Below are positions 13,351 to 63,454 of a DNA stretch of 64,000 nt, piece after piece. The stretch lies in the NCBI GenBank assembly GCA_000004985.1, contig GG738914.1; one strand, 5' to 3'. Position 1 is the stretch's first letter. The number at the start of each line of letters is the position of its first letter. This DNA is from Naegleria gruberi. Its lineage: Eukaryota. A model generated the notes under the pieces. The model was not told the origin of the DNA and did not search any database. It saw only the letters and a program-made list of their open reading frames with translations. The position numbers were made by a program, and so were the translations under genes.

Positions 13351-13972
13351 CCCTTAATTAAATCTTCACTCGTTATATATACTGGTTATGTTGCTTTAAA
13401 TAAATTAATTGAGGAAGAGTGATGAAGAGAATATGGATTGTTGTTATTGAGGGTATTGGGGTGACCCTATAACGTGAGGACTACCTTAATATTTTCAACA
13501 ACTTGCATAAACACTCTTCACGTAGTGCTGTTTTTTTAATAATATATGATTTGGAAAATCTCGCTCATCAATGTGGAAATGATGAGACCTTATAGGGTAA
13601 TTAAGGCAACAGATTGAGGTCTCGCAAAAACAGCCAAAAACTCTCAATCTCTCCTCAACAATCCATTGGGTAGTCGCTTTGAATCGAACTTGTGTGAGAT
13701 ACAGCGTGGCGCTACTGAATCAGGTTAATAAACAAAAGGGCCAGTTTGAAATTATGTCTATTTCTGAAAGTGATTACTGTCACCAATATTGGTGAAAATA
13801 TATTTTGGTGCCTTTACTGAGCACATTAATAATTTGCAATTCAATTTTAACGAGAATAGAAGGTATTAATGTTATAAGGATTATATATTCGAATTTGATA
13901 TCAATCAAAAGGAAAAAAGGAATTGGTTCAAAAAGCACAAAATTGTTTACTGATTGCGTTGATTAATATTAT

Positions 13973-15058: not shown

Positions 15059-15489
15059 CTCTTGGTGTTTTATATATATTTACTGTTGTTGTTGTTACGA
15101 AAATGGAAAAATCTTATTATTCATAATATTTATCAGGTTGTTAATGCTCTCCTTATTATAACTTGTTATTGTTATTGAATAAATTTTCAGTTGCGGATTA
15201 TGACTATTTGTTCAATGAGTGCAATCGCGTTATTCTTTTGTTTTTGAAAATGCTTTAGAGTTGTCTATTTTTTCGGTATGTTATACACCTTAGTGTGGCC
15301 GCCTAGTTGAACAACAAATTTTTCCTTCCTTGACCAAGATACGCTTCATATGGACATAAATTATCCGTTTCAAAAAAGTATAGAGAACCATGTTGGTTTC
15401 CTAACAAGGAATTCCACAGTTTTGAGACAGCAAGAGATACCTGGATTGTTTTTGATTTACAACAAGATATTGAAGCTTAATAACAAATA

Positions 15490-17367: not shown

Positions 17368-18276
17368 ATTATTTAAAGTTGATATGCTGTTGATTAATAG
17401 TAAGGAAATAATTTTAATAACCCCATCAACCTTCTTATGATGAGAGGCAATGTGTACCAATTGCAGTTGTTGATTTTTCAAGTTTAACACTTGAAGAAGA
17501 TGAGAAATTGGTGATGTATTTTGTTTTTCAAAGAGAACACAAATGAATCTAAAACTGTCGTGAGTTAATGGAAGGTTGTTGCTTACTCCCAAGATTCTCA
17601 ATCTGTTGATGATTCCTTGTTGGTTATTTGATAATGGCTTGTGCGAAAATTATTTGGTCGGTTGTGTTGGAGCAAATCTGCAAGAAACCTCAAAAAGTGT
17701 TCTGATGATGGTTGTGTGACTGTTTTTTTTTGGCGATGGGCGTAGAGGTAAGGTTCCTTCTCCACTTACTTGGAACAAACAAAGACAATAAAAACCTTTA
17801 AGGAAATTGTTGAGCAAAGTACGACACTGTGTAAGATGTCAATAGTTGTGTGTTGGAATGGAAACAAAGCAGACTTTTAAACACTCAGCCTATTCTTGCG
17901 CCTTATTATGTTATTACATAACATTCCTTGTGGTGTTACTGAATTATACAAATGCAATCAAGCAAAGTATTGAGGAGAACAGAACTTGCAGTGTTACTCT
18001 TCAGCTCTCGTAGTACTCGGGCTAGTTTTCTTTAAAGCTAATGAGAGAACACAATAGGATTTAAACGAATGAATTTGGTCCTTATCAAGATCAATATACC
18101 CTAGTACATGTTTAATAAGAACTCTGTAAGGCAAAAGAAGTCGGGTTGTTCCTGCACGCTGTATTCGTCAACCATTTTTGGCATTATAAAGTCCTTGTTT
18201 GTCTTCTCTATTTAATTGTCTACTGTAGTAGTTCGCTTCATGTATTGAGTTGACTGAACTTGAAGTACATATTTAC

Positions 18277-42475: not shown

Positions 42476-45400
42476 ATGACTCAACAAGTTAGTACAACCA
42501 ACATGTTGCGTTTAGTCTTGTTTCTACTCTCATTGATGTGTTGTTTGTCCACCATAACACATGCCACAACCATCAATGGTTACACTTTGGATTTGTTCAT
42601 TGGTGGTAATTTTACGAGTGGATTGAAAGTTGCCGAAACTTCACCAACCTTCTCAACCAACAACTTTGAATATCGACTCGTCTATCTGGATAAGAGAAAC
42701 GGTGATTTGTACTATTCTGTTTCAGGAAAGGTTATTCGAAAGCTCGATAAGAATGGAATTGTAACCAATGTGGCAGGAAGCATGAGAAATAATGGTAATT
42801 ATGAAGATATAGCCACCATTCAAGATTATTACTATGCCTTGGACAGAGAATTGATAGATATTGGTGGTTTAATTATTGACACCAAGTCAAATGATATTTA
42901 CTATTTAAATAATGGAATTTATATGGAAAGAATTCGAAACTCTGATAAGAAATCGATTATTGCAGTTGGTTATGGCACCAATAACGAACTTCCCTCTGAA
43001 GGATTGGGAAATCAAATCAATTTTGCTTACAATTATCCTTCTTACAATAATTACGTTCGTGGACTTGCCATAAATGGTAAGAATGAAATATTTATTGTCC
43101 AAAGAAGTTCAATTTCCAAATATAATATTGGAAATTATAGCGTTACTAATATTTTGACAGATTTTGAACCTGGCACTTATTCACAAATTGTTCTTTCCAA
43201 AGACGAAACTTTTTTGTTTGCCAAAAATGGTGAAGCAATTGATAAGATTTCCATGAATGGACAAGTGACATTTGGTTATACTAGTATTTCTAATTTAATG
43301 AGTATTGATACTGTTGATAATGAACTCTACATGTTAACTTTAACTGGTGTTTACGTTTTCAGAAACAATTCGAATCAACTTATTGCTGCCGGAAGTTCAG
43401 GAAGTTTCGTCGATGGCATGAATTCTACCAATTTACTAATTAATTATGGTACTACCATGCTTGTTGATGATAATAAGGATATTTACTTGACTGATTTGTA
43501 TAGTTCTGTAATTCTCAAGATTGACCATGCTAGTCAATTGGTCACAAATTTGTTAGCTGTTGAAATTCCAACATCTAGTGAAACAGTTTATTCAGCAAAG
43601 AATTTTACTAGTAGAGGTATTTCACATGCAGTTCATAATAAGGTCAATGGTTTCGTATACATGTGTGATTCGAATGGAAATGTATTCGAATATGACAATA
43701 ATTTAGTTTCTCAAAAAGTAACTGGTTATTCCTGTATTGATATTGCTGTAAATTCCCTCGGAGAAGTATACTTCCTTTCTAATTACTTTATTTATCAATT
43801 ATTAAGCAATGGAACTGTTATTACCTTTGCAGGAGATGGAACTTGGGGTGTTCCTATAAATGGAACTTATCTTGACCAAAACCCAGTTGCAGCAGTTAGA
43901 TTTGGTTTCTATTCGAATAATGACATGTTTCTTCAATCCAGTTATTACATTTTCAGAGTTGACCACACAACCAAATTTGTCCAAAAAATTTATTCCTCAA
44001 CCAATAGTGAATTAAGAATTACAATCATCGATCCAGACACTGACAACTTGTACACTTCTGAAGGATCGTCAATTAGTTTAGTTTATCCTAATGGAATTGC
44101 CGAAATAGTTGCTGGAATTAACTCTCAACCAGCAGTTCGTTCATTCAAGAGAAAGATTAGTTTATCCGATGTAGGAGAAGATGCATTCGCCAATTACATT
44201 AATCCAACTGGTATGTCCATTGGAGCCGATGGAAAATTATACATTTCCTATCAATATATGGTTAAGAGACTTGAGAATGGATTGTTATGGACACAGCAAT
44301 TTGTGGACACACAACAAGGACCTATGAGTGCTGCCTTTATTAGTGATGTGGTCATTTTGGGAAGATTTGGAGATGCAATCATGTTGACGAATCCAAATGG
44401 AAATATTTATTTATTGAATCCAGTTTCTAGTTTTACCTGTTTTGGTAATTTACCTTCTTCATCAAGTGTTTGTTCAGGTTACGGTTCATGTGTTGGTCCA
44501 AATCGATGCAACTGTCAAAATACCAACTTTGGTTTCGAATGTGAATATTCCACTTGTTTCGACGTTTCAGGATTCGACTATCAAACTGTTTGTGGAGGTG
44601 TCGGTAAATGTTCCATACAAGATCAATGCTCATGTCCATCTGGATACACTGGCACCACCTGTTCCACACCACTTTACAATATCTGTTATGGAATTTCCTC
44701 AAATTCGTCGAATGTTTGTTCTGGAAAGGGAAGTTGCGTTTCGACTGATTCCTGTAAATGCAATGCTGGAAGAGTTGGAAGTTATTGTCAGTATGAGTTT
44801 TGTGCAAGTACTTGGAATGCAAATTCTGAAACCTTGACATGTGCTGTTCCATCCTCGAGTTCTGTTGAGGTCAATCAGGAAATTGTGGCTGTCAATCAAT
44901 TAAGTTCAAAGGTTTTGAGGTTTAGTAGAACTCCATCAGTTTCTATAACGTTCCCATCTGATTTTTATTCGTATGTGTTAAAGACTTATCCTGAAATTGG
45001 TGATCAGTTGACAGTTGTTTCTTCCATTTATGATCCAACACTTGACACTTCTCAAGAATTGCTTGTAGTGAGTTCGACTGCTTCAGTTTCTGTCTTTAAA
45101 AATACTTCAGATATTCTCCCAGTCTATAATCTTCCAAATCCAATTGTCATTCAATTCAACAGCATCAAAATTGACAAGACAGGTGGCAGTTTCAACTATT
45201 CCTGTATGTATTATGACACTGCATCAAATTCTTGGAGCAGTAGTGGAATTAAGAGTACCATCACATCCTCACAACTTTCCTCTACTTATTACACATTCTC
45301 ACTCAAGTGTGAAACCTATCACTTGACATCTTTCTCAGTAATTGACATGAATTATAAAAAGACAAGTCGAGATGACACATTACAATTAGGAGGATTGACT

Positions 45401-45538
45401 ACTGGTGGAATCATTGCACTTGCTGTTACATTGGGAGGTGCTGGTTTGATTTGTATTGTGGTTGGAATAATCGTGGCTGCCATTATTGGCGTTTGTATGT
45501 GGACGAAACATAACAAGAAGAAGAATATGGCCAATTAG
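42476..45538 (+). CDS. Type-I membrane glycoprotein (1020 aa): signal peptide, large extracellular region, tenascin-type EGF-like repeats, one C-terminal transmembrane helix.
   Basis: N-terminal hydrophobic signal (MLRLVLFLLSLMCCLSTITHA). EGF-like CxCxxGxxGxxC units (CSGYGSCVGPNRCNCQNTNFGFECEYSTC; CSGKGSCVSTDSCKCNAGRVGSYCQYEFC). TM segment GIIALAVTLGGAGLICIVVGIIVAAIIGVCMW with a short basic tail. Confidence 0.7.
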   Translation: MTQQVSTTNMLRLVLFLLSLMCCLSTITHATTINGYTLDLFIGGNFTSGLKVAETSPTFSTNNFEYRLVYLDKRNGDLYYSVSGKVIRKLDKNGIVTNVAGSMRNNGNYEDIATIQDYYYALDRELIDIGGLIIDTKSNDIYYLNNGIYMERIRNSDKKSIIAVGYGTNNELPSEGLGNQINFAYNYPSYNNYVRGLAINGKNEIFIVQRSSISKYNIGNYSVTNILTDFEPGTYSQIVLSKDETFLFAKNGEAIDKISMNGQVTFGYTSISNLMSIDTVDNELYMLTLTGVYVFRNNSNQLIAAGSSGSFVDGMNSTNLLINYGTTMLVDDNKDIYLTDLYSSVILKIDHASQLVTNLLAVEIPTSSETVYSAKNFTSRGISHAVHNKVNGFVYMCDSNGNVFEYDNNLVSQKVTGYSCIDIAVNSLGEVYFLSNYFIYQLLSNGTVITFAGDGTWGVPINGTYLDQNPVAAVRFGFYSNNDMFLQSSYYIFRVDHTTKFVQKIYSSTNSELRITIIDPDTDNLYTSEGSSISLVYPNGIAEIVAGINSQPAVRSFKRKISLSDVGEDAFANYINPTGMSIGADGKLYISYQYMVKRLENGLLWTQQFVDTQQGPMSAAFISDVVILGRFGDAIMLTNPNGNIYLLNPVSSFTCFGNLPSSSSVCSGYGSCVGPNRCNCQNTNFGFECEYSTCFDVSGFDYQTVCGGVGKCSIQDQCSCPSGYTGTTCSTPLYNICYGISSNSSNVCSGKGSCVSTDSCKCNAGRVGSYCQYEFCASTWNANSETLTCAVPSSSSVEVNQEIVAVNQLSSKVLRFSRTPSVSITFPSDFYSYVLKTYPEIGDQLTVVSSIYDPTLDTSQELLVVSSTASVSVFKNTSDILPVYNLPNPIVIQFNSIKIDKTGGSFNYSCMYYDTASNSWSSSGIKSTITSSQLSSTYYTFSLKCETYHLTSFSVIDMNYKKTSRDDTLQLGGLTTGGIIALAVTLGGAGLICIVVGIIVAAIIGVCMWTKHNKKKNMAN

Positions 45539-47324: not shown

Positions 47325-48128
47325 ATGAAAGCTGTTCGTTGTGTGAATGTTTGTTGCTTGCTCTTGTTAGCAATTGTCTCTGCTATGATGTTATTAGAAA
47401 CTAGTGTTGGAAAGGATGTCAAGTTTTGCATGCCTCCACAAGCTACCTTCTGGGAGACTACCAAGGATGCTAGCTATATCATGAAGGAATTCAAAAATAA
47501 TGATCAGGTTATCAAGAACCAATACAATGTCAAGACTTCACAACAACGTCAAGATTTTATCGTAAAAGGAAATGTTGTAAAAAGTGAAATTTCCATTCAA
47601 AATCCAATGAATAATGATACCATCGTGTATACTCTGACCAGTGACAATGGTGATTGTTCTTGCATGAATTTTGGTCCATCTGATTCCAGTGTTTTTGTAC
47701 AATGTCACACTTTACCAATTTTGGAAAAGGGTAGTATAGCTGGAATTAATGCATTGAAAATTGGTTACAATCAAAGTGATTTGTATCCAACATGGACTGA
47801 AATTAATTATTATTGGGTTGTTCCTGCTAAGGAAAGTGGATATTGGTGGTTTTTGAGTAGAACTAGTTATGTCATTGATGATTCGAATAATGTTCAATTG
47901 GGAACTACTACTTATTATAATCAAGAAGATAAGGCTGATCCTTATGCATTCTATCTTCCAAAGTATTGTCCTCATTACTCACAATGTACCAATCCAAGAA
48001 AAAATAAACTGTTTTTGAATGACTTCCATATTTGGCAGTTTACTTGTCAATCACAAGATGAATTAAATTTTGCATTTGATTTAGAAATTTCTGTCCTTCA
48101 TCAGTTATACCATTTGAATAAACATTAA
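47325..48128 (+). CDS. Secreted Cys-containing hypothetical protein. The 3' end is uncertain because it overlaps the minus-strand LRR gene.
   Basis: ATG at 47325 (ggaaaATGAAA) followed by a signal-peptide-like MKAVRCVNVCCLLLLAIVSAMMLLETSVG. The last ~30 codons (48040..48128) overlap the 3' coding end of the LRR gene on the other strand, so the true terminus may lie earlier or be spliced. Confidence 0.45.
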   Translation: MKAVRCVNVCCLLLLAIVSAMMLLETSVGKDVKFCMPPQATFWETTKDASYIMKEFKNNDQVIKNQYNVKTSQQRQDFIVKGNVVKSEISIQNPMNNDTIVYTLTSDNGDCSCMNFGPSDSSVFVQCHTLPILEKGSIAGINALKIGYNQSDLYPTWTEINYYWVVPAKESGYWWFLSRTSYVIDDSNNVQLGTTTYYNQEDKADPYAFYLPKYCPHYSQCTNPRKNKLFLNDFHIWQFTCQSQDELNFAFDLEISVLHQLYHLNKH

Positions 48129-49264
48129 GATCAGTCAAACTATTCAATTGACTAATGAAATTTGCTCCCTGATCACGAATGCAGTTATTACCAATGTTAA
48201 GCGTAGTCAATCTATCCAATCCACTAATGTGTTCAGCTCCTTTTTGTCCAATATTATTTCCACAAATAGTAAGGTTGGTCAACTGTTTCATTTCACTAAT
48301 ATATTGAGCGCCTTCATCGCCTAATTTGTTATATCCAATACCAAGAGTAGTCAATTGCTTGAGTACACATAAATGTTTTGCACCTTCTTCACTAATATTA
48401 GATGTGTAAATATAAAGATTTGTGAGTTTGGACATTTCGCTAATATATTTAGCTCCTTCATCACCAACTTTTGTGTTATTAATAGAGATAGGTTAATTGT
48501 TTCAAAGAGTGAATGTGTTTAGCACCTTCAACTCCAATATCATTGTTACTAATGTTGAGACTAGTCAATTGATTCATTCTACCAATGTATTGAGCTCCTA
48601 TATGACCAATATTATTCGAAAGGATGAGCAGTGTGGTTAACTGGTTGAGTTGACTAATAGATTTTGCTCCTTCATCTCCAATTTCATTTTCTGATATTTC
48701 GAGATATCTTAGTTGTTGCATATTACCGATATACTTGGCTCCCCCCATATCGATAGGATACAAATACCCACACATATCAAGATGAGTCAATTGATTCATT
48801 TTGCTAATGTATTTAGCACCTTCATTACCAAAATCATTGGCAGTAATATCAAGAATTCTTAATTTCTTCAGTTGACTAATGTGTTTTATATCTTCACTAC
48901 CAAGATTGTTATAATGAATATCAAGAACAGTCAACTGCTTCATCAATTCCAATATTTTACAATCAAATTTAAAAGATAAATCTCTATTTTCCACTTTTAA
49001 AGTTACAATATTTTGTAAAAATTGACCTTTCACCATTCTATCATTCCTACATATTACCGAAAGTTTACATCTTTCTCTAACAATTTTCAACCACTGTTTT
49101 GAAACTAGTGCACAACTCATTGCAATAAATTTAAAATCATCGGAATGAAAAGATAAAATCTCTCCGAGTATATCATCATCAATAACATGATGAGAATTAT
49201 TCATTGTATTGAGTGTCGATACCTCTGCAGCAGCAGAAGGGTTGCTTGTTTGTTGTTGGCCCAT
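48040..49264 (-). CDS. F-box-like + leucine-rich-repeat (ribonuclease-inhibitor-type) protein with an apparent frameshift near 48479..48495.
   Basis: N-terminal MGQQQTS..., then an F-box-like DDILGEILSFHSDDFKFIAMSCALVSKQWLKIV, then ~24-aa LRRs (QLTxLxISxNxIGDEGAKxIS). ORF 48479..49264 ends ...AKHIHSLKQLTYLY*. The next repeat continues in the +1 frame (ISINNTKVGDEGAKYISEMSKLTNLYI...), which is ORF 48040..48435. There is no space for an intron. Confidence 0.6.
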
Positions 49265-49368: not shown

Positions 49369-50663
49369 CTAATGGTTTAAGCAAACTGTCTTGATATATT
49401 TCCCAGAATAGGTAATATTTGGTCGTCTCAACATTTGAGCTGTACTTCCAACCACATGCAAATAATAATTCATATAACATTGAATTACTGACAATGCTCC
49501 ACAATCAGAAGGATCTACCGAAATGGAAATTTCAAATAAGAGAGATCCTTTTTGTAAGTTTTCAGGGCTCACATAGAATTGAACCCAAGGATTCAAATAG
49601 CTTGTATCAATTCCTGATTTGGCAATTACTTTTCTACTCTTCTTTTCAGTAATTTGAATCTTGAAATTCTTGGCATAAATATCTGGAACTACCAATACGG
49701 AAACATATTGAGGTTCTGTAACGTTAACAACATAAACGTCTGCGTTAAGTGAGCCAGTTGTTGTAACCATAAAACTGGTATCCAATTGACCAAGAGAACT
49801 TAATTGCATCGCTCTATTTTTTGTGTAATCTTCATAGAGTGGCCATCTCACATTCGTTTTATCATCCCATGCAACAGTGACAAATCTCTGAATAACTCCC
49901 TTTGAATCTACATAATCTCCATTTTCATTCCTAGTAAACCCATGAATTCCAATTGGTCCCAATGGCCCTAATCCACCCAGAGGGCCCAAAGGACCTAGAG
50001 GACCCATAATTGACCAAACTCCCAATCCTTGCATGTGTTTAGTAAAATCATTAATCAATGGCATTAAATTATAGAAAGAATCACCTAGAGGCCCATCAGC
50101 AGACAATGGATTTTCCGAATTATAAATAAGAGGATTATATTCCTTATAGTATGGACCTAGCAAGATTTCCAAATATTCCTGAAAGAGAGCATAAGCTCCA
50201 CTAGGACTAGGTACTTCATGACTCAATGGTCTATCAATTGGTTCGATATTCTCATTCAAAAACAACTTACCCTAATGTTCCCAGAGGTCCATACGCAGCT
50301 ATTGGTCTATGTCCCCATTTGTGAGAATTATTTAACAATCATTCACACTTACCCATTCCATCCCAAACAACTCGAAGGTGTAATATACAAATCACAATCA
50401 GGTGCAGCTGGACAATTTCTAGGATAAGGCACCACACCAGACCCCACAAACGTATCATCCAATCCAAATATCGTGTCAGAACTAGTATATCTGTAGCAGT
50501 TTGGAGAATTTGTTTGTATCTTGCCAGATACGAGCGAGAGAGCATCCACTACCACTACTACTTGATTGTTACTGATCAGTAGCAGTACAAGCAGTAGTAG
50601 TTGTGTGATCAATAATGAGGTGTTGTTGAATTTTTGGTGGGTTGTGACCTTGTTTTGTTGCAT
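49369..50663 (-). CDS. Secreted protein with short collagen-like Gly-X-Y runs. Three exons: 50663..50353, 50306..50271 and 50230..49369.
   Basis: Exon 1 has a signal peptide (LLITQLLLLVLLLISNN) and Cys-containing region ending ...CLGWN + GG|GTAAGT. A 36-nt mini-exon (A CCA ATA GCT GCG TAT GGA CCT CTG GGA ACA TTA GG) encodes GPIAAYGPLGTLG and is flanked by the AG acceptor and a GTAAGT donor. Exon 3 begins A CCA TTG... and contains IMGPLGPLGPLGGLGPLGPIGIHG followed by a ~200-aa C-terminal globular region. Phases agree (phase 2 / 1-nt carry). Introns are only 46 and 40 nt; skipping the mini-exon is also frame-compatible. Confidence 0.5.
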
Positions 50664-50982: not shown

Positions 50983-53271
50983 ATGAAGAATGAATTTTCC
51001 AGGGAGTATGACTTGTTATTGTTCATAGAGGAGGCAATTGAAGCGAAAATTATTCTTCCTTCATCATTATCATCAAATCATCATCAAAATCAACCGACAT
51101 CATCGACATCTTCCTCTCAAATTCTTCATGTTTACTTGTATGGATCCCGAGCCTACTTTCCATCTGATGAAGATCAACAACAACAGCAGCTCGGATCTAA
51201 CAGAGACTATGATACTGTTGTCATTGTTGAGAATTGTACCTTTATCAAATTGATGAATTATTGCAAAACTCTTCAACAAGAACCTTCTCATCATCACACA
51301 GAGGAAAATATTAAACTTGAAGAATTCCTACTCAATTCTAACAAGCAATACTACAAGATTCTGTACACTTTTATGAGGAATAACGTGGAAATATCCATGT
51401 CGATCTATTCGGAAAGGATTTTCCAGAGAATGATTCAGGATCACTCGATATTCATCTTGTTTTGTGTTCATAATAGGAATTCAATAGTAAAGTGGAAGGA
51501 AACTTGGAATGAACGAGTGGAGGGCTATAATTCCAATGATCTCTCCCTTTCCGAATGTTACTATAGGAAATACTTTCAGAAACACAAGTTTGTTCCATCT
51601 GTACTATCGGAAGTGAATAGAGCTTGGCAAAAGTTCTATAACAAGATTGTGAAAGATCATGATGAGAGTAAGGGAACTAAGTTGGTGGTGTACTGCTTTA
51701 GATTCTTGGCTTGGGCTACAGAATTATTGCAATATCATTGTGTGGATGAGTCAGTGTTTAGTGGAAATGAAATTTATTGGAATTTACAGCAAAATGTGTT
51801 GGATAAATTTGATAGACAGGATTATAAGGCCCTGTACAAGACTATCGATGAAGAGTATGGAGAAAAGTATAGTCTGACAGTAGATTCATTCACGAAATTG
51901 TCTGAATTTTCATCTCTCTATCCAAATATTAGTCTCACAAAATCCGAAACAACTGAAGTGATTATTAGTGATCCTTCAATGGTATTGAAAGAAATGAAGC
52001 AATTATTGGAAGGATTGAACAGCATTGAGGATCTGTATAGACTCTTTTCAATTTATTACAAAAATTCAGCACAAAGTCAAGGTATTGCATTGAGTGCTAC
52101 CGATATGAGTCCAAGGGATTATCCAATTATTAGCCTGTGCATTAACTCATCTGTAAATAATTCAATATTATTTGACACTGCTCAACATTCAATTCTCAAA
52201 GCAATACCATTTATTCCTAATATTAGAATAGAGATGAACGAAAGTGCTTGCAGAGAAGTGATGTTGAAGAATAGTCCTGGATCAACTTGGCATGAAATTT
52301 ATACCTCTCGAAATCATCAGAATTGCTTTTTAGTTTGGTGGAACTTTCAAAGTTCAAAGTGGTGCGTGAATGAAGCAACTAATTTAACATTGGCTTTGAG
52401 AATATTCATTAATTACCTACCATGTTTATTGAATAATGATCAATTTGAAAATTATTCAATAACTATACAACTAGAAAATTCGAATGATATTACTATAATA
52501 GGATTTAATTATTTGGAAAAATCTGGAAATTATAGACAACAACTGGTTACCAAATTTGAGGATTTTGCTCCAAATATTATTTTCTCTAAAGAGAATTTTA
52601 ATAGAGATGAATTTAATTTAACATTTAGAAAACCAATACTCAAAATTCAGCAACCTAGTGTAGCTTTAACATTTGATGGATACAGAACCTTTGTATTGAA
52701 TCACGATGAAATTCAAGATATTCTCCATGACAATCAAGTGGAAGTTATTGAAATATTTACCTATTCTTCTGATGTGGACACAAAGCCACTCTATACCTCC
52801 ATAACTACGCCTTCATATAATTGCCTTCGTAAAATGAAACAGGTAATTCTCGATAATGGAGATTGCACGCTCAGAGAAGTCTCACAACTACCAAAGCATA
52901 TAAAGGAATTGTGCTTGGAATTCACTCGTTGGAATTTAAATATTAACAAGTTATTGGAGGACATACAGCTTGAATTTTATGGAAATACAGTGGAGATGAT
53001 TTGTCAACAAATTGAATTATATAGTTCTTTAATTTCAAACCTTAGAGAAACTATTCAAAAGCTATCTAATATTTCGGAACCCAAACTTTTGGACAAGAAT
53101 ATAAAAGAAATTATCACCAGTAAGCAAACAGTTTCACTACTCAAGGCAATTCTATTCCGAGTTCAACAAAAATCCTCAGTGGGTGATATAATTATTAGAT
53201 GCATTAGAAATACATACCGTCAAAGATTATTAACACTGTTGGAAGAAGTTTCTAAAAAACCTCAACAGTAG
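50983..53271 (+). CDS. Large hypothetical protein (762 aa) with a possible N-terminal nucleotidyltransferase-fold (Pol-beta superfamily) motif.
   Basis: Single uninterrupted ORF. Residues ~50-85 read ILHVYLYGSRAYFPSDED(QQQQQLGSNR)DYDTVVIVEN. This resembles the GS-x(n)-[DE]h[DE]h catalytic signature of nucleotidyltransferases, with a poly-Q insertion. The rest of the protein is not recognisable. Confidence 0.5.
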   Translation: MKNEFSREYDLLLFIEEAIEAKIILPSSLSSNHHQNQPTSSTSSSQILHVYLYGSRAYFPSDEDQQQQQLGSNRDYDTVVIVENCTFIKLMNYCKTLQQEPSHHHTEENIKLEEFLLNSNKQYYKILYTFMRNNVEISMSIYSERIFQRMIQDHSIFILFCVHNRNSIVKWKETWNERVEGYNSNDLSLSECYYRKYFQKHKFVPSVLSEVNRAWQKFYNKIVKDHDESKGTKLVVYCFRFLAWATELLQYHCVDESVFSGNEIYWNLQQNVLDKFDRQDYKALYKTIDEEYGEKYSLTVDSFTKLSEFSSLYPNISLTKSETTEVIISDPSMVLKEMKQLLEGLNSIEDLYRLFSIYYKNSAQSQGIALSATDMSPRDYPIISLCINSSVNNSILFDTAQHSILKAIPFIPNIRIEMNESACREVMLKNSPGSTWHEIYTSRNHQNCFLVWWNFQSSKWCVNEATNLTLALRIFINYLPCLLNNDQFENYSITIQLENSNDITIIGFNYLEKSGNYRQQLVTKFEDFAPNIIFSKENFNRDEFNLTFRKPILKIQQPSVALTFDGYRTFVLNHDEIQDILHDNQVEVIEIFTYSSDVDTKPLYTSITTPSYNCLRKMKQVILDNGDCTLREVSQLPKHIKELCLEFTRWNLNINKLLEDIQLEFYGNTVEMICQQIELYSSLISNLRETIQKLSNISEPKLLDKNIKEIITSKQTVSLLKAILFRVQQKSSVGDIIIRCIRNTYRQRLLTLLEEVSKKPQQ

Positions 53272-53325: not shown

Positions 53326-55962
53326 CTACTGTTTCCACATTTTATTGATTTTCTTACAGAAAACATCACTCATCAACAGTTGATTTCCATTCGAATTGAA
53401 ATTTCTGAAACAACTTTGCATTTCACATTCCTTTCCAAAATATCCCTCATCACAAACACAACTATTCGGTGCAGCACAATAACCACGGGATGAGCATGCT
53501 AGGGCATTTGTTGAATTATATCCAAAACATGAAAATTCATCTCTTGTGTAAAGGGAAACTCTTGTTTGTCTAAGAGCTACCAAATAAGGAATTCCATCGT
53601 ATAGTTTAGGATAGAGATCTGGAGTGGCTATTGGTGGTTGTCTATATCGAATAGGAGAAGTTTGAAAGTAATCATTCACACCACCTGCATATAAATTACC
53701 TTTCCTTGTGATCAAATAATAACTCTTGTCCATCGTATAGCCCGAAACTACATACGAATCATCGGAAGGTAATATGATGGGATAGGGTTGACCATAAAAA
53801 TAATAAGGCTTTCCAATTGTTGAGATAAGAAGCATAGAAGAAGTACCTCCTGTAACCAATTGCCTAACTTTGACATCTCCATTAACTCGAATAAAGTTTA
53901 CAATATTTGTTTCTGAACTCAATGACAAGTATTTTGAATTATCATTATTTCCACAGCCATACACATTTCCTTGATTGGTTAATAATAGCAATGTTGCTGC
54001 ATAGGTTATTACTTTCAAATCCACAACTCTTTCACCAACTCCTAAAAAGGAAATATCTAACATGGTAAATGAATTGAAAACTGTTGGAGCATTTACACCA
54101 AATCCAAATTGATAATTGGAATTTCTACCAATTCCAAGGACACTTCCATTTTTCATCAAGAAGAAAATATTGTCGTCTCCTATTAAGGCGAATTTTTCAA
54201 CATTCGAATAGAAAAGTTGTGGACTTGAAGTGAAGGTAATTGGAAGAGAGAATTGGTAAGCTGGGGATCCCCAACCATACAAATCTCCATTCGAAAGCAG
54301 AATGAATCCAACTTGGTTTCCCAATTCGATTGAAACTATTTCTTGTTTCGTCAAGTTGGACGAAATTAAACTTTCCTTAACTGGTAATATAGAAGATGGG
54401 AAGAGTCCAGAGCAGAGTCCCCAATACTCCATTGAAGTGATATTTCCATTAGATTTTGAAATTATCACTGAACAATCTCCATTCGATTTGGCAGAAATAA
54501 TCGAAACACTGTTCGAAATGTTCATTGATGGAATTGTCAAATTTCTAGGATAACGAATCTCTCTTTCTTCACCTTTAGCCAATATTCCATCTCTATTTGT
54601 TCCCCAAACATATGCCATCCCTTCAGAAGTGACTGAAACTCCATTTGCATCTGTAAACCCAACTTTCGTCAAGTTTCCACCATTCATCATTACAATCTTA
54701 TCAAAATTTGGACCATAAAAATCATGTCCATAATTATCTTGTCTTCCATATCCCCAAGAATACAAATTTCCACCAATAATACAAGCCGAAATCAAACCAG
54801 AAGCATAACATTCGGTAACATTCGAATTAATGTAACTCATTTTTCTTGGAACCCAAACAACCTGTCCAGCACTTGGATCACACTGTTGTGCATCATTATC
54901 ACCAAACACATACACATTTCCATTTTCCAAAATTGTCAAGGCATGTGAAACTCCAAAATGAATTTTTTTGACTTTTGAAGGAAGCAATGTGACTTGTCTA
55001 GGTGTTTCAGTATAATCAAGAGAAGTATCATTCACACCCATAGATCCACGATAATTACTTCCCCACGTATATAATTTACCATCCTTATCAATTGCTGCCA
55101 TTACTGACCTTCCACTAGAATAGGAAGATTTCGAACCACTTAACGAAACTATATTTTGCAATGAAGCAATCTGATTAATCACATAACTATTAATAGCAGT
55201 TGCTACTCCTCTAATATAATCTCCACATCCAAAACTGAAAACATGTCCATAATTAGTAAGTGCAAAATAAGTTTGGCAATAAATATAACCACAAATTTCA
55301 ATATCAACAATTTCTACATTCTGATAAGGTTGAAAATCATCTTGATTGATGTAATTATTGAGAATGAATGTTTCTGTCCAAGGTGTCATTGAATTAGACG
55401 TGTCAAGATATTCTTGAATGAAAACTTTTCCATCACTTGTCAAAATTAAACATGAAAATAAGCAAACCATTTTAGTGACAGTTCTGTTACCAGTAATGAA
55501 TGGATTTTCATTCTTTCCTTCTTCTGTATAGATGTATGTTGGTTCTGGAAGTGTGAAAATTTTTGGTGGTGAAGTTTTTGGATTTCCTCCACTTACGAGA
55601 ATTGTTTGATTGATTGGCATGGATGTGGTTGTGTTGGAGTATTGTAGAATGTAGTAAATTGAATAAGTTGCTGGAACTATTTGTTGAAGCTTGACAGAAA
55701 CGTCACGTGCTTGAATGCCAGTTGTCAATCTGTAAGATTCAGAGCCGTTGAAGAATAAAGTGGAAAGATAAGAGTTGGGTTCTGCTGGATATCCGATTGA
55801 TGTTGGGTAATAGAAATTAAAACCATTGTTGTCAGCGTTACCAAAGTTGTAAATATTTTTCACATTAATTGAACAGCTGGCATGATGTAATATTGACAGG
55901 AAGCATATCACAAACAATAGACCTATCGGTAGCAATTGTTCCCCGCTACGTTTTACACTCAT
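53326..55962 (-). CDS. Secreted RCC1-like beta-propeller repeat protein with a C-terminal EGF-like module (878 aa).
   Basis: N-terminal signal (LLPIGLLFVICFLSILHHASC). RCC1-type repeats (LYTWGSNYRGSMG, VYVFGDNDAQQC, LYSWGYGRQDNYGHD, AYVWGTNRDGILAKG, LYGWGSPAYQFS, VYGCGNNDNSKY, LYAGGVNDYFQTSP). C-terminal CSSRGYCAAPNSCVCDEGYFGKECEMQSC. Confidence 0.65.
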   Translation of the reverse strand: MSVKRSGEQLLPIGLLFVICFLSILHHASCSINVKNIYNFGNADNNGFNFYYPTSIGYPAEPNSYLSTLFFNGSESYRLTTGIQARDVSVKLQQIVPATYSIYYILQYSNTTTSMPINQTILVSGGNPKTSPPKIFTLPEPTYIYTEEGKNENPFITGNRTVTKMVCLFSCLILTSDGKVFIQEYLDTSNSMTPWTETFILNNYINQDDFQPYQNVEIVDIEICGYIYCQTYFALTNYGHVFSFGCGDYIRGVATAINSYVINQIASLQNIVSLSGSKSSYSSGRSVMAAIDKDGKLYTWGSNYRGSMGVNDTSLDYTETPRQVTLLPSKVKKIHFGVSHALTILENGNVYVFGDNDAQQCDPSAGQVVWVPRKMSYINSNVTECYASGLISACIIGGNLYSWGYGRQDNYGHDFYGPNFDKIVMMNGGNLTKVGFTDANGVSVTSEGMAYVWGTNRDGILAKGEEREIRYPRNLTIPSMNISNSVSIISAKSNGDCSVIISKSNGNITSMEYWGLCSGLFPSSILPVKESLISSNLTKQEIVSIELGNQVGFILLSNGDLYGWGSPAYQFSLPITFTSSPQLFYSNVEKFALIGDDNIFFLMKNGSVLGIGRNSNYQFGFGVNAPTVFNSFTMLDISFLGVGERVVDLKVITYAATLLLLTNQGNVYGCGNNDNSKYLSLSSETNIVNFIRVNGDVKVRQLVTGGTSSMLLISTIGKPYYFYGQPYPIILPSDDSYVVSGYTMDKSYYLITRKGNLYAGGVNDYFQTSPIRYRQPPIATPDLYPKLYDGIPYLVALRQTRVSLYTRDEFSCFGYNSTNALACSSRGYCAAPNSCVCDEGYFGKECEMQSCFRNFNSNGNQLLMSDVFCKKINKMWKQ

Positions 55963-56356: not shown

Positions 56357-57748
56357 ATGTCAGAATTAAAAACCACACCATCACCATCTTGCTCTCTATT
56401 TCTTCCTGATGATATTTGTTATGAAATATTAACTTTTTTACATTGTAACGATGAATACGATGAATACGATGATGATGGATCATTTTTAACACATCAATTA
56501 TTTATTTTAAATACTTGTTGTTTAATATCTAAACAATGGTTAAATGTAATTCGGAATCGATGTGAATTTACTATTTTTATTCATCATGCCAGCTGTCAAG
56601 TATTAAATTCTTTAATGGATTCGCAATTTGTTTCTAATTTTACAACACTACATGTCACTGAATCTTGGGATTGTAATATGGAAATGATTAGTTCTATGAA
56701 TCATTTAACTAAATTGCACATTAACAATAATTACACCAGTAAGAAAATGGAATTTATATGTAAATTGAATCAATTGAAAATATTGGAATTGGAATTGAGT
56801 GATATTGGAAATGAACAACTTATTCAAATTTCCCAATCTATGAAACAATTAACAAAACTTAGTGTTGGTTTTAATGATATTGGAGGAGAAGGATTGAAAT
56901 TAATTAAAGAGTTGAGTAATTCCTTGACTATCTTAAATATTGAACATAATCAAATAGGAAATGAAGGTTTGGAATTATTAAGTGGATTGACACGATTGGA
57001 TAGTCTTGATATTTCTACGAATAAGATTGATAAATTCAATTCAATTTGTAATTTGAATCAATTAACAATATTAAATGTCAGTAATAATATTGTTGGAAAT
57101 GAGGGTGTGAAATTCATAAGTAAATTGAAACATTTAACTGAGCTAGTTATGCAGAGTTGTAACGTTAAGGAGGAAGGAATGAAATCAATTTGTGAATTGA
57201 AGAATTTAACCAACTTTAACATTAGTAATAATTTTATTCGAAATGAAGGAATGATATTGATATGTAATTCATTTCCACTATTGAAATGTCTACGTGCAAG
57301 CTCAAACAAGATTAGCAACGAAGGAGTTCAAGATATTACTAAATTAGAAAGATTGACCGATCTGAATATTTGCCGAAATGAAATTAGCAATAATGGAATG
57401 AAATCAATTAGTGGATTAAAGAAGCTAACTTGTCTAGATGTTAGTGGTAATAATATTAGTGATGAAGGTGCAACATCTATTAGTCAACTTTCTCAATTAT
57501 CAAGTCTTTATATTAATGACAATCAAATTGGTGATGAAGGAATGGAATCAATTAGTGAAATGAACAATTTATCTAAACTTTGGATTAATGATAATCAAAT
57601 TGGCAATATAGGAGCCAAGGCAATTTCAGTTAACATGCATCAATTAACCTTCCTTTTTATTGCCAACAATAGGATTGGTGAGGAAGGAATTAAACTTCTT
57701 GAGAATATGAAACTGACCTATTTGGAGACCTTTGATAAACTTTATTAG
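56357..57748 (+). CDS. F-box-like + leucine-rich-repeat protein (463 aa), paralog of the 48040..49264 gene.
   Basis: ATG in an aaaaaaaaATG context. F-box-like DDICYEILTFLH...CLISKQWLNVIRNRCEF, then ~14 LRRs of the form LTxLNISxNxIGNEGxKxIS.L. Confidence 0.7.
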   Translation: MSELKTTPSPSCSLFLPDDICYEILTFLHCNDEYDEYDDDGSFLTHQLFILNTCCLISKQWLNVIRNRCEFTIFIHHASCQVLNSLMDSQFVSNFTTLHVTESWDCNMEMISSMNHLTKLHINNNYTSKKMEFICKLNQLKILELELSDIGNEQLIQISQSMKQLTKLSVGFNDIGGEGLKLIKELSNSLTILNIEHNQIGNEGLELLSGLTRLDSLDISTNKIDKFNSICNLNQLTILNVSNNIVGNEGVKFISKLKHLTELVMQSCNVKEEGMKSICELKNLTNFNISNNFIRNEGMILICNSFPLLKCLRASSNKISNEGVQDITKLERLTDLNICRNEISNNGMKSISGLKKLTCLDVSGNNISDEGATSISQLSQLSSLYINDNQIGDEGMESISEMNNLSKLWINDNQIGNIGAKAISVNMHQLTFLFIANNRIGEEGIKLLENMKLTYLETFDKLY

Positions 57749-58515: not shown

Positions 58516-61500
58516 ATGCAAGGAAGAACGCTACTGCTTTTCACGCTCATCCTTTTATGTGTGCTAGCTTATTGTTGTGTAGAGAATGTTACTGCTGAAT
58601 CATGGGGAAGTTTCTTGAGTCAATCTATGCAAGTTACAAATGGTAAGTGGAGTGTAATTTGACATTTTGGAAGAATTAAGCATTATGATCATTATTCATA
58701 TTTAGGAAAATTATTTTCATCATCAAAAAGATCACAAGTTGTTTGTCCTCCAAATACCTTTGGAAGTAAATGTAATAATAAGGTGAATCTCCCAGATACA
58801 TATCCTCTCAAAAAAGGTCCGTTAATGATTGGCCAGATGGAGATTAATGATGGAAATTCTTATTCATGCGAGTGGACTATTTTTGTTTTAGAATTTAATC
58901 AAAGTTTTAGTTATCCCTGTTTTTTTGTCGTAGCCGATACAACTGTTCCACCAATCAATTACACTCTAACCTATTCAGTGTGGTCTGCAGGTTTCATAAT
59001 TTTTTCAAAGGATGTTGTGTTTATTGATGGGATAATTCCAACATTGAATACTAAGGTGACCTACATGGGTGATTTCAATTTCTTGATTGACAAACCAATG
59101 AGCTGGGATGATTCTGCCAACACATGCCAAGTTGGAATAGTTCAACAAAAGATTTCTTCATTGCAAGAACTTTCAAAGTTGAAAAACTTAACTACATTTG
59201 ACATTCCTTGCAATTCATCTTCAACAATCAAGGTTCCATATTTTGGATATCCTTACTAAGATAGTGTTTTCCTATCATAATTTAAAATATTCAATGTATG
59301 ATAATTATATTCAAGAAAGAACCTTAATTGAATACTTTCCAACATTTTTTGCAAATCTTGGAAACACGACAGACATTAGCATTTCAAACTCTGATAGAAT
59401 TATCTCTTTCTATAGCATTGTGAGTTCTAACATTCCTGTTTTGAAATGCAAAGTCCAATTGAGTCTAGGAAATTCTCTCACTACCCTATTCGAATCTAAT
59501 TGTTCTTCCTTTTTGAACTTTACCCATTCACTCACTCAATACAGCACCAATACGAATGCCTCCATCATAGTCACTCTCTCAAATCAAGAATACATGTTTG
59601 AAGAAAGTGAAACTTTTGACATGAATCTATCAAATTGTTCTCAGTGTCAAAATGGAATTTGTCGATTGTCTCAAAGTAGTATTGATGGTTCAACTCATTG
59701 CGAATGCTCAGGCTTGTTTGAAGGAGAATTTTGTCAAGAGTGTAAAGATGGTTTTGTCAAATTATCGGACAAGTGCGTTTGTCCGAATGGTTATCAACAA
59801 ATTGGTTTTGGCTGTGTCTTTGTTAGTAGCTCAAACGCCACTTCCTGTTTTGGATATAGTGTCAAAGAAGGTGATCGTGCATGTTCTTATCATGGAATTT
59901 GTAATTTGAATACTCATTTGTGTGAATGTAGTGAAAACTTTGATGGTGACAGATGTTCAACATGTAAGACAGGTTACACTGGTTCAAAGTGTGATATTCC
60001 AATTTGTCATGATGTGAGTGCCATCGATTCAACTGTTTGTAATTCCAAAGGTGATTGTGTAGCACCTGACAGCTGTCAATGTAATGCAAATTATTATGGA
60101 CCTAATTGTGCAAGCTTTAAATGTAATGGCATTGAAAAGAATAATGCTTTAGTTTGTTCATCACATGGTACATGTTCCAATGCTGATGTATGCACTTGTT
60201 CCTCAAATTATGATTCGTCCACTTTCTGTTCAAAATGTCTTCCTTCCTACAATGGAACTGATTGTTCCATAAAAATTTGCAGCCCAGAAACCACTTGTAG
60301 AGGCCATGGACAATGTAACGATCAATTACAATGTATCTGTAATGGAAAATTCACAGGCACCTATTGTGAAAAGTGTTTAGATGGTTGGGTTGGCAGTAAT
60401 TGCGACATTACTTGTTCTGCACAGACAACTTGTTCTGGAAAGGGAAGTTGTTCATCAACTGGATCTTGTATCTGCTCGGCAACTTCCTATGGAGATCATT
60501 GTGAGAATTGTAAAGATGGTTGGTATGGAGCTAATTGCGACTTTAGAATAGATTTTACATCTTTTGAATTTAATGAGAATGGTGATTCGATTAGTGCTTC
60601 TGTAAACTCTGTCATGAAGAAGAATATCAACTGTTCATCGCTCATTGTAAACACTGAAGTGTTAGGACAAGGTGCAACTTGTGTATTGGATGGTGATAAG
60701 AGTTTATTGATCATTAATCTTGGCACCTTGGCAACTATTGTCATTAATGGAAATCTCATTATCAGAAACTACATTGACAGCAAATTAACAACCAATGCCA
60801 AAGTGTCAGGAACTTTCTATCAAAGAGTTGATCCTGTCGCCTCCTTGACATCTGAAAAGTCTGTCATTGGTTGTGGAACAATGTTCTTGGATGCTTCTTC
60901 ATCCACTTCATTGGACAGAAGAAGATTGTTATTCACATTCTCTGCAGTCACAGCTCCAAATAATCAAGCCTTATCAAACCTTAATAATCTCATTTCTGGA
61001 AATAGTGCAAGTACTGTCAAATTCTCAGTGAATAATTTTACAGGTGGATCTTATTCTGTTCAGGTTGCTGTTCAGAGCACATTCTCTGGTAGAGTTTCGT
61101 ATGCTACGTTTGCATTCATGGTGACTGATGCCTCCCCACCAAATTTGAGTATTAAGAATGGTGTTTCGAGTACTGTGACTATTGGAAACTCATTTGTGGT
61201 TACACCAATTGTTTCATTCCCTTCATGTTATTCTGGTTCTGCTTTAATATCTAATCTGAAATTTACCTATACTCAAGTTAGCGGTGCTGCACTCCAGATT
61301 AAACAAAAGAATGAATTGTTGGTGTTTAGTTCAGATTATACCAAGTTGACTGAAGAAGGTAAATATGTATTTAGTTTGAGTGCTGTTGAACAGGGATATC
61401 CAGGAGCATCCATCACATTCGAAATCATCGCAGTAGCCCTTCCATTGAAAGTTTCGTTCAATATTCGTGACATGTCTCAATCCATGGAAGATAAAATCTC

Positions 61501-63454
61501 GTTTACAGTACTCAAACAGGATCCAAGTAATCCAGATGATGCAAGTGGACAAGTAGCTCTATCTTGTGTCAATATGGAAACTTTACAAAGTTGTGATGGT
61601 TTCGTCCAGAATGGTGCAAATATTGATCAGACCACTTTGTTATTTAACCAAAAGTATGGACCTGGCGTTTATTTGTTTACTGCTGTGTACACCAAGGGTT
61701 CGAGATTCTCCTCTTCCAAAGTTAAAATCACTGTCACAAGTCAATCGAAATCATCCTTCTTGAGAATATACATTAATACTCCTTCCAATATTGATCTGAC
61801 CTCAGTTGACCCATCCACTTATTTAATTCTTCAAGCACAAAGCATCGACTCACTAAGCGTTCAAAGAATCTACTCATGGACAACTGATTTTGATTCCTCC
61901 TCCACCTCCTCATTGGATCTCAACAAGAAATACTTGTCCATTCCAAAGAGTTTACTTGTTCCTGGTGCTTCTTACACAGTTTCTGTTAAGGTTGTGGATG
62001 GAGCAAAGGTAGGTGAGGGAGTTATTTCATTTGTGGTCAATTCGCCTCCAACATTGGGAAGTTTGGAAATTAATCCATCGACAGGTGTTGCCCTCACTGA
62101 TGAATTTAAGGTTTCATGTGGAAATGGGTGGTCGGATGTTCAACTCCCGCTGACCTTCAAGTTTTTGTACAGACTTCAAGGAGATGTGTTCTGGAAAGTA
62201 TTGAAAGAAAGATCTGAAACGAGGTCTTTCAGTACTGTCATGCCAAGTGGACATATAGAAATCAAATCCATTGTCTATGATGCTTTAGGAGCCGCCACAG
62301 AAACAACACAAATCATTCAAGTCACTAATCCAGTTGACATTACATCAGCCGTTCAATCTTTGAATGCTATTAGTACTTCTTCAGTCACTTCCTCTTCGAC
62401 CTCATCTGCATTGAGTGTTATTCAATCATTGAAACCTCAAACTCAAGAAGAAAAGCAAAAATTGAGTGAAACTGGATCAAAGATTGCAATTGCCTATTTT
62501 TCACAGATAGAAAAGGAAGAAACCGTCACTTCCCAAACAGTTTCATCAACAGCCTCTTCAATTTCTGTTATTTCATCCATCAGTACTTGTATTTCAAATC
62601 TGCCTGAAAGCACAGTCAGTTTTATCATTACTAAATTCAAGTCAACTGTCGATGGCGCCAATTCAAAGCTTAATTTACCAGATGAAGATATTGAATCATC
62701 ATTCAACAGTGCCACCACCATTCAATCCTATGTTGTCAAAAATGGAGAAAAGAGGGCAATCTATGTCTTCTCCAAAGTTGATATTACAATGTTAGATCAA
62801 ATTAAGGAAACTCTTGTTAACCTACAAGTGAAGAATTTAGTTGCAGACATGCCTGCTGCTAGAACATTCGGCACAGATTACTATTCATATATGAGATTAA
62901 TGAGCGTTTCGTCTTTGAGTAATTTGAATGATACAATCAGTTCAGAATCTTCATTCTCTCTCAGTCAACCATTCAGCACACTATCACAATTTTCTAATTT
63001 GGATACTGTTAAACTTGTGATGAAAGTCCAACAACAAAACGAAAGTGTTACCAAACTTTTCTCATTCAAGGTAGTTTCTACCAATACTGAAATACCAATC
63101 AGTTCTGATTCAATTGCTGAACTCACCATTGAAAATAATGATGGAGTTGTACAAAATGCTGCCACTTACGAATGCAAGATTTTACAAAATGGACAATTGA
63201 CATCATTGTCCTCATGTGTGATTGTTTCACACTCTGCAACCAGCTTTACAGTTAGGGTTCCTTCAACTGGTTCTTATGCAATTGTGGCCAATGTTAAGAA
63301 AGATGTTATTGTTGACATATTGTCAGAAGATAATTTGAAATATCTTGCTTTCCTATCATTGATTGTTCCAATTGTTGTGTTGATTGTCATTGTTTTCATT
63401 GTTGTGGTTTGTGTTATTAGAAAGAGAAAGAGAGCAAAAGTTCAAGGTGTTTAA
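58516..63454 (+). CDS. Large type-I membrane protein (~1600 aa) with a signal peptide and multiple EGF-like repeats. Exons 58516..58642 and 58706..~59250, then an apparent +1 frameshift in 59192..59259 leading into ORF 59198..63454.
   Basis: Exon 1 has ATG at 58516 (aaaaaaATG), signal peptide MQGRTLLLFTLILLCVLAYCC..., and a donor AAT G|GTAAGT at 58642/58643. A 63-nt intron ends tcatatttAG at 58705. Exon 2 continues in the frame of ORF 58783..59259. The 1418-aa ORF (8+ EGF-like CxC modules, a C-terminal TM LAFLSLIVPIVVLIVIVFIVVVCVI and an RKRKRAKVQGV tail) is in the +1 frame and open only from 59192. The only GT..AG option would give a 28-nt intron, so a frameshift is inferred. Confidence 0.6.

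Follow-up and report, generated by a model that had tools for sequence, protein, structure and literature searches.

The 762-amino-acid (aa) protein encoded at 50983-53271 (+) of a 64-kb stretch of Naegleria gruberi DNA (contig GG738914.1; the whole analysed stretch is called the window throughout) is most aptly seen as a fusion, specific to protists, in which an RlaP-like nucleotidyltransferase (NTase) module of phage type is joined to a C-terminal region; the latter may be an Rnl1 ligase that is no longer active, the evidence for this ligase-like tail being modest. The overall best explanation, to which we give a probability of about 0.5, is that a nucleotidyltransferase acting on RNA 3' ends is joined to a module that derives from a ligase and is probably non-catalytic; the protein is probably an RNA-end repair or modification factor and not a signalling enzyme. 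An original prediction, made by a model from the letters of the window, had described the product as an orphan protein carrying a GS...DxD motif of Pol-beta-superfamily NTases, and the open reading frame (ORF) runs from ATG to TAG exactly where it had been placed. Its product matches, with 100% identity, an NCBI/UniRef entry named 'predicted protein [Naegleria gruberi]' for which a precomputed Pfam domain is absent; this identifies the window as nuclear DNA of N. gruberi and the ORF as a single-exon gene model that is already accepted.

The N-terminal nucleotidyltransferase module

The protein is not the orphan that it had been taken for. An exhaustive HMMER scan of 1.84 billion cluster representatives identified 8 further homologous clusters, namely an orthologue in N. 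fowleri (33% identity, E=7.6e-70), a fragment in N. lovaniensis and 6 others. Residues 48-84 of the N. gruberi protein, the peptide on which the original prediction had relied, were found as described and read ...LHVYLYGSRAYFPSDEDQQQQQLGSNRDYDTVVIVEN. A loose pattern of this kind, G[SG]-x5-25-D-x-[DE], is present in 17% of shuffles of the same protein and is weak by itself, and the pattern with the flanking hydrophobic strands, hhG[SG]-x9-20-D-x-[DE]-x-hhh, is present in 0.04% of them. The motif lies far beyond chance because it is invariant across the homologues: all family sequences that retain the N-terminus read hh[FY]GS[RT]x[YF]G-x5-[SA]D-x-D-hhhh, with G54, S55, D75 and D77 unchanged in 9/9, and F115, Q122 and H165 are also invariant in the family alignments. 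The two aspartates, whose conservation in orthologues the prediction had singled out as decisive for its fate, are thus kept throughout. In N. gruberi the corresponding pieces are L-Y-G54-S55 and D75-Y-D77-T-V-V-I-V, and D75-Y76-D77, not D62-E63-D64, is the predicted catalytic DxD, since the former is conserved and the latter sits in a poly-Q insertion that has no counterpart in non-Naegleria relatives. The same loop insertion accounts for a GS-to-DxD spacing of 19 residues in N. gruberi, compared with 10 in the relatives and 13 in N. fowleri.

Pol-beta enzymes of this kind would be expected to place a further acidic residue downstream, and one within 50-80 aa of the motif had been proposed as a check. 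A residue of this kind is present, E136, 59 aa past D77, in the V-E-I with which the [VI]S-x-x-[IV]Y strand opens; in our alignment all eukaryotic members and both phage NTases have D or E no more than 1-3 residues away from it, and the PF18765 match of the relative P0006 spans the equivalent strand, up to profile position 89/93. The second candidate, E113, lies 36 aa past D77. On the alignment we favour E136 over E113 as the putative third carboxylate.

Membership of the Pol-beta superfamily is well supported by transitive sequence homology and loosely by fold search. Searches of the whole protein and of its thirds against Pfam, NCBIfam, PHROG and PDB sequences returned nothing above threshold (Pfam gathering cutoffs: PF18765, 26.9 bits; PF01909, 21; PF10127, 23; PF22600, 27), and the match of the N. 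gruberi protein to PF18765 rose from 15.6 bits (E=0.018) to 20.3 bits (E=6e-4) once the poly-Q insert had been deleted in silico. The assignment can be made because its relatives do pass the PF01909 and PF18765 thresholds and are homologous to it: P0004, P0006, P0007 and the repaired protein from the JAESGV assembly reach 30-37.5 bits for PF01909 and 31-33.7 bits for PF18765, and P0004 (E=4.5e-18) and P0007 (E=2.5e-12) align with the N. gruberi protein from aa 44-45 on, motif included. Family profiles also match minimal NTases in PDB (9xbd_E, E=1.9e-4; the MNT antitoxin 5yep_A). The AlphaFold2 (AF2) model contains a beta-alpha-beta core with the NTase strand order at a predicted local distance difference test (pLDDT) of 75-90. 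The Foldseek search that had been suggested on such a model gave a weak enrichment of Pol-beta-fold enzymes, the top PDB matches being TUT7, HalB, GLD-2, URT1, alarmone synthetases and Pol mu (E 0.018-0.1 for TUT7, GLD-2 and URT1). Invariant motif, relatives above Pfam thresholds and modelled core together support the superfamily proposed at the outset. Three points weigh against this part of our interpretation, namely that the N. gruberi protein itself falls below every Pfam threshold, which makes its NTase assignment one of transitive homology, that a 19-residue GS-to-DxD spacing is unusually long, and that the third carboxylate is not pinned down, E113 being K in N. fowleri and E136 lying in a loosely aligned turn.

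The closest relatives of the N-terminal part are found in large and jumbo phages. Residues 1-230 of P0007 cover 93-94% of the length of phage proteins such as the NTase of Stenotrophomonas phage RAS14/CM1 (8e-14 by tblastn, 3e-21 by blastp) and gp167 of Bacillus phage Nate (3e-17), and a search with the RAS14 protein retrieved 77 phage records, including XacN1, Bacillus phage G, Lak phages, SCTP-2 and a Vibrio phage; all phage records listed for this search are of at least 140 kb. The alignment with the phage NTases shares motifs and takes in a helical domain, ending near aa 311 in Naegleria numbering; AF2 places helices at 189-307, after the core, and these are conserved with the phage NTases in the alignment. 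Judged from these alignments, residues ~46-311 are shown to make up one evolutionary module in which an NTase core is joined to a helical partner domain. An alternative reading of this helical domain as a HEPN RNase was rejected, as the Rx4-6H motif is absent from the family alignment. The phage proteins and P0007 belong to PHROG 388 (phrog_388, 'nucleotidyltransferase'). For the RlaP family (PF10127), P0007 scores 24.9 bits, above the cutoff of 23, over profile positions 8-96 of 249, and RAS14 (19.8 bits, positions 16-170 of 249) and Nate (17.0 bits) give sub-threshold matches that reach the helical part; the N. gruberi protein has no PF10127 match. By sequence, then, the closest relatives of the module are a phage NTase group that is RlaP-like and not bona fide RlaP.

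The gene neighbourhoods of these phage NTases offer a functional context. In the Bacillus phages Nate and PJN02, which represent two genera, the NTase gene lies 1.3-1.6 kb upstream of an Rnl1-type ligase gene (PF09511, 3e-12 and 3.7e-18), which is followed closely by an AAA_33 kinase + HD phosphatase, directly in Nate and past an endonuclease gene in PJN02. By their predicted domains these genes form a heal-and-seal RNA-repair cassette. Arrays of tRNA genes occur 1-4 kb from the NTase in Bacillus phage G (locus L016, 1303-3398) and in Vibrio jumbo phage 2.275.O (locus L018, 8550-10438). In Bacillus phage G a gene with a macro (Appr-1-p processing) domain is also found 5.5 kb downstream of the NTase.

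The C-terminal region and Rnl1-type RNA ligases

Residues 331-762 have no Pfam, NCBIfam, PHROG or PDB-sequence match and no fold match, and the AF2 model of these C-terminal ~430 aa is of low confidence. Because the phage NTases neighbour Rnl1 ligases, the region was compared with that family. Two of its conserved motifs, R-x-F-S-[VI] and P-M-[VI]-x-x-C-N-G-x-[VI], resemble RIFSY...ECRGIMF of T4 RNA ligase 1. In profile-profile comparisons by hhalign against Rnl1 profiles built from 8-9 diverse phage ligases, the C-terminus of the whole family scored 22.5-25.0 (P 0.07-0.03) and that of the seven non-Naegleria sequences 30.8-31.8 (P 0.005-0.004), the best score (31.8, P=0.0038) being reached with the 9-sequence profile. 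The same seven sequences scored 26.1 (P 0.024) against the five non-T4 ligases, an independent half of the Rnl1 set that thus replicates the match, and 14.7, which is not significant, against the three T4-like ligases; the three Naegleria sequences scored ~11 against the 8-9 ligases, likewise not significant. Block-shuffled decoys had a mean of 16-17, a standard deviation of 1.5-1.8 and a maximum of 22.0, with 0/200 reaching the 30.8 obtained with the 8-sequence profile; reversed profiles gave 15.4 and 17.2, and controls with unrelated modules 13.6 and 15.1. The non-Naegleria match extends over 142-146 colinear columns and passes from FS/IFSY to CNG/CRG, the motif I region and SfIFE/TxnFE (motif III). 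The Naegleria-only profile has its best local alignment at the same Rnl1 positions, which is not significant alone.

These results leave homology of the C-terminal region to Rnl1 at roughly even odds. Were it real, it would point to a degenerate, non-catalytic and RNA-end-binding domain, because the lysine motifs of the ligase are not conserved: the motif I position reads S-R-N-H in N. gruberi against K-E-D-G in Rnl1, K or R occurs in the column beside it in 4/5 protist relatives only, and D-G in none. Of the ~650 aa that had been declared unrecognisable, the original prediction can thus be amended for ~189-311, now resolved as the phage-type helical domain, and the remainder, ~331-762, may correspond to a degenerate Rnl1-type ligase.

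The strongest competitor to this reading of the tail, which we consider rather unlikely, accepts a real NTase at the N-terminus and takes the C-terminal ~430 aa to be a novel protist-specific pair of domains unrelated to RNA ligases, in which case the acceptor could be of any kind and could not be deduced. It draws on the lack of any family, PDB-sequence or fold match for aa 331-762, and on invariant residues (S356, C386, W460, P610, C628, G667) that are not ligase catalytic residues. Two further observations in its favour also count against our own interpretation: the hhalign probability for Rnl1 is 1.6-8.8%, below 10%, and T4-like ligases alone or Naegleria sequences alone give nothing significant. 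Our interpretation of the tail is weakened, in addition, by the following: neither hhalign against a single phage ligase nor a PDB profile search with the C-terminal alignment returned a ligase; PF09511 has no match at E<=1-10; the Rnl1 residues KxDG, R54 and the lysines of motif V lack conservation; and the Rnl1 hypothesis arose from motif resemblance, so the test was not fully blind. Against the competitor, the hhalign score lies far above all 200 decoys, both reversals and both unrelated-module controls, colinear alignment over ~146-360 columns brings recognised Rnl1 motifs together, and the phage homologues of the N-terminal module, as neighbours of Rnl1 ligases, independently predict just such a fusion.

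Predicted substrate, alternative activities and significance

The role of an RNA 3'-end nucleotidyltransferase is the one that we infer as best supported, by analogy, because of the repair-cassette and tRNA context of the phage genes together with published work on RlaP, jumbo phages and N. gruberi. Bacterial RlaP, which consists of an NTase and a helical domain, adds 1-2 nucleoside monophosphates (NMP) onto the 3'-OH of RNA (PMC12776372), and in jumbo phages the distribution of RlaP parallels that of RNA ligases (PMC7824862). N. gruberi is described as having many enzymes of RNA repair, 15 putative ligases among them (PMC4408790). According to the mechanism that we propose, the N-terminal module (~46-311) would bind a nucleoside triphosphate (NTP) with Mg2+, with E136 (or E113) as third carboxylate, and would transfer one or a few NMPs, template-independently, to an RNA 3'-OH, as RlaP does. 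Residues ~331-762 would descend, by weaker reasoning, from a T4 Rnl1-type ligase that has lost the KxDG lysine, and this tail would bind RNA ends or tRNA and serve in targeting; it would not seal RNA. The protein could then be seen as the fused form of an NTase-plus-ligase pair that phage RNA-repair cassettes keep as neighbouring genes.

A bolder version of this proposal, which we put forward only tentatively, is that of a 'Rosetta-stone' fusion in Heterolobosea and a few other protists, in which an RlaP-like NTase was joined to a lysine-less Rnl1 recognising the ends of broken RNA or tRNA, the source being probably jumbo-phage-like or bacterial; it would represent a new type of eukaryotic enzyme for RNA-end repair or marking and the first pseudo-ligase targeting domain. 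Two circumstances weaken the case for an RNA acceptor. The substrate is deduced solely from phage gene neighbourhoods and the RlaP analogy, and the NTases of RAS14, XacN1 and Vibrio phage 2.275.O have NAD-salvage genes as neighbours in place of RNA ligases, so that another functional link is possible. Within a few genes of the NTase we observed NadM NMN adenylyltransferase/ADP-ribose pyrophosphatase in RAS14 and XacN1, nicotinate phosphoribosyltransferase in XacN1 and the Vibrio phage, and a DUF1768 gene in XacN1.

A different acceptor is envisaged if the protein resembles the KNTase/LinB/MNT enzymes and AMPylates or nucleotidylates a small molecule or a protein, the helical domain forming an acceptor pocket for a metabolite, an antibiotic-like compound or a partner protein; we regard this as improbable. 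The minimal NTases and MNT antitoxins and the KNTase-LinB antibiotic NTases belong to PF01909 and PF18765, the families whose thresholds the relatives exceed, and an MNT antitoxin is among the PDB matches of the family profiles. They are bacterial proteins of 100-290 aa that act on HEPN toxins or antibiotics, whereas the N. gruberi protein has another architecture, a eukaryotic distribution and no HEPN Rx4-6H motif.

Still less probable is a non-canonical poly(A)/poly(U) polymerase (TENT/TUTase-like) engaged in processive tailing of cellular RNAs, a kinship that the original prediction had also raised. TUT7, GLD-2 and URT1 do head the Foldseek list, and the MTPAP-like central domain PF22600 gives matches in three relatives (16.5-17.9 bits, E=0.0035-0.009). 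The latter are, however, below threshold, and the Foldseek matches, at E>=0.018, are not significant; Pfam searches detected no PAP-associated (nucleotide-recognition) domain in the N. gruberi protein or its relatives, and the helical domain has its homologue in the phage NTases of ~200 aa. The similarity to poly(A) polymerases (PAP) and TUTases is therefore one of generic fold only. Finally, a cGAS/DncV-like signalling enzyme (CD-NTase, Mab-21, OAS) producing cyclic or linear oligonucleotide messengers, the other kinship and the signalling role entertained at the outset, has in its favour the GS...DxD motif alone, which is generic to the superfamily, and was rejected as highly improbable since Mab-21, cGAS, OAS, CD-NTase and CBASS cyclase models in Pfam and PADLOC matched no family member.

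The N. gruberi protein and its relatives have until now stood in the databases as unannotated 'predicted' or 'hypothetical' products, and recognition of an intact, phage-associated RlaP-like NTase module gives them a testable biochemical function and connects eukaryotes with PHROG 388, a group of phage NTases that has received little study. If an NTase is truly fused here to a ligase-derived module, the architecture would lend direct support to the proposed cooperation of NTases and ligases in RNA repair, and would be an example of a catalytic domain reused for substrate recognition. If the tail is instead an unrelated novel domain, the outcome would amount to annotating a divergent NTase, which is new but routine. 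The presence of an orthologue in the pathogen N. fowleri, and apparently of none in animals, confers a modest applied interest.

Gene features, family distribution and relation to known systems

Coordinates of the gene and of the features recognised in its product are collected in Table 1.

Table 1. The NTase gene of the window and the elements of its product
Feature	Coordinates	Strand	Basis
Complete single-exon gene, 762 codons + TAG	50983..53271	+	ORF; identity to deposited protein; N. fowleri orthologue, E=7.6e-70
aa 1-24, N-terminal helix (alpha1 of NTase fold)	50983..51054	+	AF2 helix 2-24; short helix-forming leader before strand 1 in relatives
aa 25-45, Ser/Gln/His-rich low-complexity linker, N. 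gruberi-specific	51055..51117	+	pLDDT<50 for 23-45; no relative in the alignment has the linker
aa 46-160, predicted Pol-beta-type nucleotidyltransferase core, 5 strands + helices	51118..51462	+	AF2 strands 47-53, 74-82, 108-116, 122-132, 135-143; PF18765; PDB profile matches
G54-S55, predicted hG[GS] NTP-binding motif	51142..51147	+	invariant in 9/9 family sequences with N-terminus and in both phage homologues
aa 62-74 (DEDQQQQQLGSNR), lineage-specific loop insertion holding decoy 'DED'	51166..51204	+	gap in all non-Naegleria relatives; pLDDT<50 for 61-73
D75-Y76-D77, predicted catalytic DxD metal-binding pair, start of strand 2	51205..51213	+	both Asp invariant in family and phage homologues
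E113, secondary third-carboxylate candidate, beta-hairpin of eukaryotic family	51319..51321	+	E in all members but N. fowleri (K); hairpin not in phage homologues
E136 (V-E-I, start of strand 5), best third-carboxylate candidate	51388..51390	+	position suggested by alignment
aa 189-311, helical domain of NTase module	51547..51915	+	conserved block VLxEvNRaWxKa-N-I-K--D--KG-KL--Y-FR-L-Wa--L
aa 331-609, beta-rich middle domain, candidate degenerate Rnl1-type ligase nucleotidyltransferase fold	51973..52809	+	invariant S356, C386, W460; hhalign vs Rnl1
aa 610-762, C-terminal all-helical domain	52810..53268	+	invariant P610, C628, G667; conserved QLPKxI

Outside Naegleria, the remaining 6 relatives come from metagenomes, whole-genome shotgun assemblies or sequencing-run (Logan) assemblies, and the contigs that could be obtained for 3 of the relatives are eukaryotic by gene content. 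Those of the JAESGV assembly carry BBS2-like, PPR, ELO and RasGAP-like genes, and the family member there is interrupted by a 31-nt GT..AG intron; RGS, leucine-rich-repeat (LRR), HMG-box and ABCG genes lie on the P0006 contig, which measures 38 kb. Full-length relatives were found neither in viral contigs nor in 185,579 bacterial and archaeal genomes, and on this account the full-length family is eukaryotic. Word-indexed protein searches (one with the single sequence and two with profiles) recovered the query alone, a result explained by low-complexity words that probably swamped the first two of them and by a family that is also genuinely sparse. In several public gene models the NTase domain is hidden by a truncated N-terminus, as in P0003 and in the proteins of N. 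fowleri (XP_044569348, 600 aa) and N. lovaniensis (XP_044550858, 521 aa), to be compared with the 737-aa N. fowleri CAG4718469; the JAESGV gene model similarly lacks exon 1, which the 31-nt intron separates from the rest (loci L004, 2643-4815, and L003, 3197-5366). Two contigs of that assembly, JAESGV010001840.1 and JAESGV010000885.1, share a near-identical three-gene block (BBS2-like gene, NTase family member and PPR protein gene), probably as haplotypes or through a recent duplication.

The window has a GC content of ~33% and contains no paralogue of the 762-aa protein within its 64 kb. Around the gene lie LRR, RCC1-EGF and REJ-EGF genes, and the eukaryotic neighbourhoods as a whole are uninformative on function, whether in the window (LRR, RCC1-EGF, REJ), in JAESGV (BBS2, PPR, ELO, RasGAP-like) or on the P0006 contig (RGS, ABCG). 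Convergent with the NTase gene, its stop codon 54 bp away, is a gene at 53326-55962 (-) whose 878-aa product has an RCC1-like beta-propeller (PF25390, 8e-50) and, at its C-terminus, an EGF domain. On the other side, a 298-aa ORF at 49369-50265 (-) has a collagen-like GPLGPLGPLGGLGPLGPIG stretch and no Pfam match, and adjacent LRR_6/LRR_8 ORFs of 131 and 261 aa at 48040-49264 (-) resemble a single RNI-type leucine-rich-repeat gene with a short intron between them; a third LRR gene of the window lies at 56357-57748 (+). Animal-like extracellular modules are encoded at 59198-63454 (+), where a 1418-aa protein combines a REJ domain (PF02010, 4e-35) with EGF and teneurin-type EGF repeats, and at 42476-45538 (+), where a 1020-aa EGF-containing protein is found. 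Farther away, the 6 kb at 12001-18000 show an unusually strong positive GC skew (+0.21 to +0.27) and a GC content of 0.36-0.38, higher than in the rest of the window, and are covered by minus-strand ORFs.

Among known systems, the comparison with T4 Rnl1-type ligases (PF09511; T4/T6 RnlA and the ligase domain of fungal and plant Trl1) concerns the C-terminus. The likeness lies in an N-terminal helix, a beta-rich domain of ~250 aa and an all-helical domain of ~130-150 aa, alike in order and approximate size; the difference is that AF2 did not recover the ligase fold with 9 sequences and that the sequence similarity is statistically suggestive only. The phage NTases named here (Stenotrophomonas RAS14 WAX21744, Xanthomonas XacN1 ORF208, Bacillus Nate gp167 and PJN02 UNH58439) share with the N-terminal module the GSRxYG-x5-SDYD motif, an acidic residue ahead of the [VI]S-x-x-[IV]Y strand and the helical-domain motifs K[LS]xx[YH]x[FI]R...Q[LI]A..G.I.D. 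They are, however, stand-alone proteins of ~200 aa, in which the E113 beta-hairpin, the loop insertions of Naegleria and the whole ~430-aa C-terminal region are missing; their identity to the protist relatives is ~24-27%, and the N. gruberi protein matches them at E~0.01 only. To our knowledge, none of the phage NTases of PHROG 388 has been biochemically characterised. RlaP differs from the N. gruberi protein as a single-module enzyme of ~250 aa with three strictly conserved Asp, the third acid in Naegleria being Glu or uncertain, and the matches to the RlaP family are marginal and mostly within the catalytic core. Both proteins nonetheless present an NTase core followed by a helical domain, with GS and DxD motifs, and an association with RNA ligases is seen in the gene neighbourhoods of some of the phage homologues (Nate, PJN02) and, possibly, as a fusion in Naegleria.

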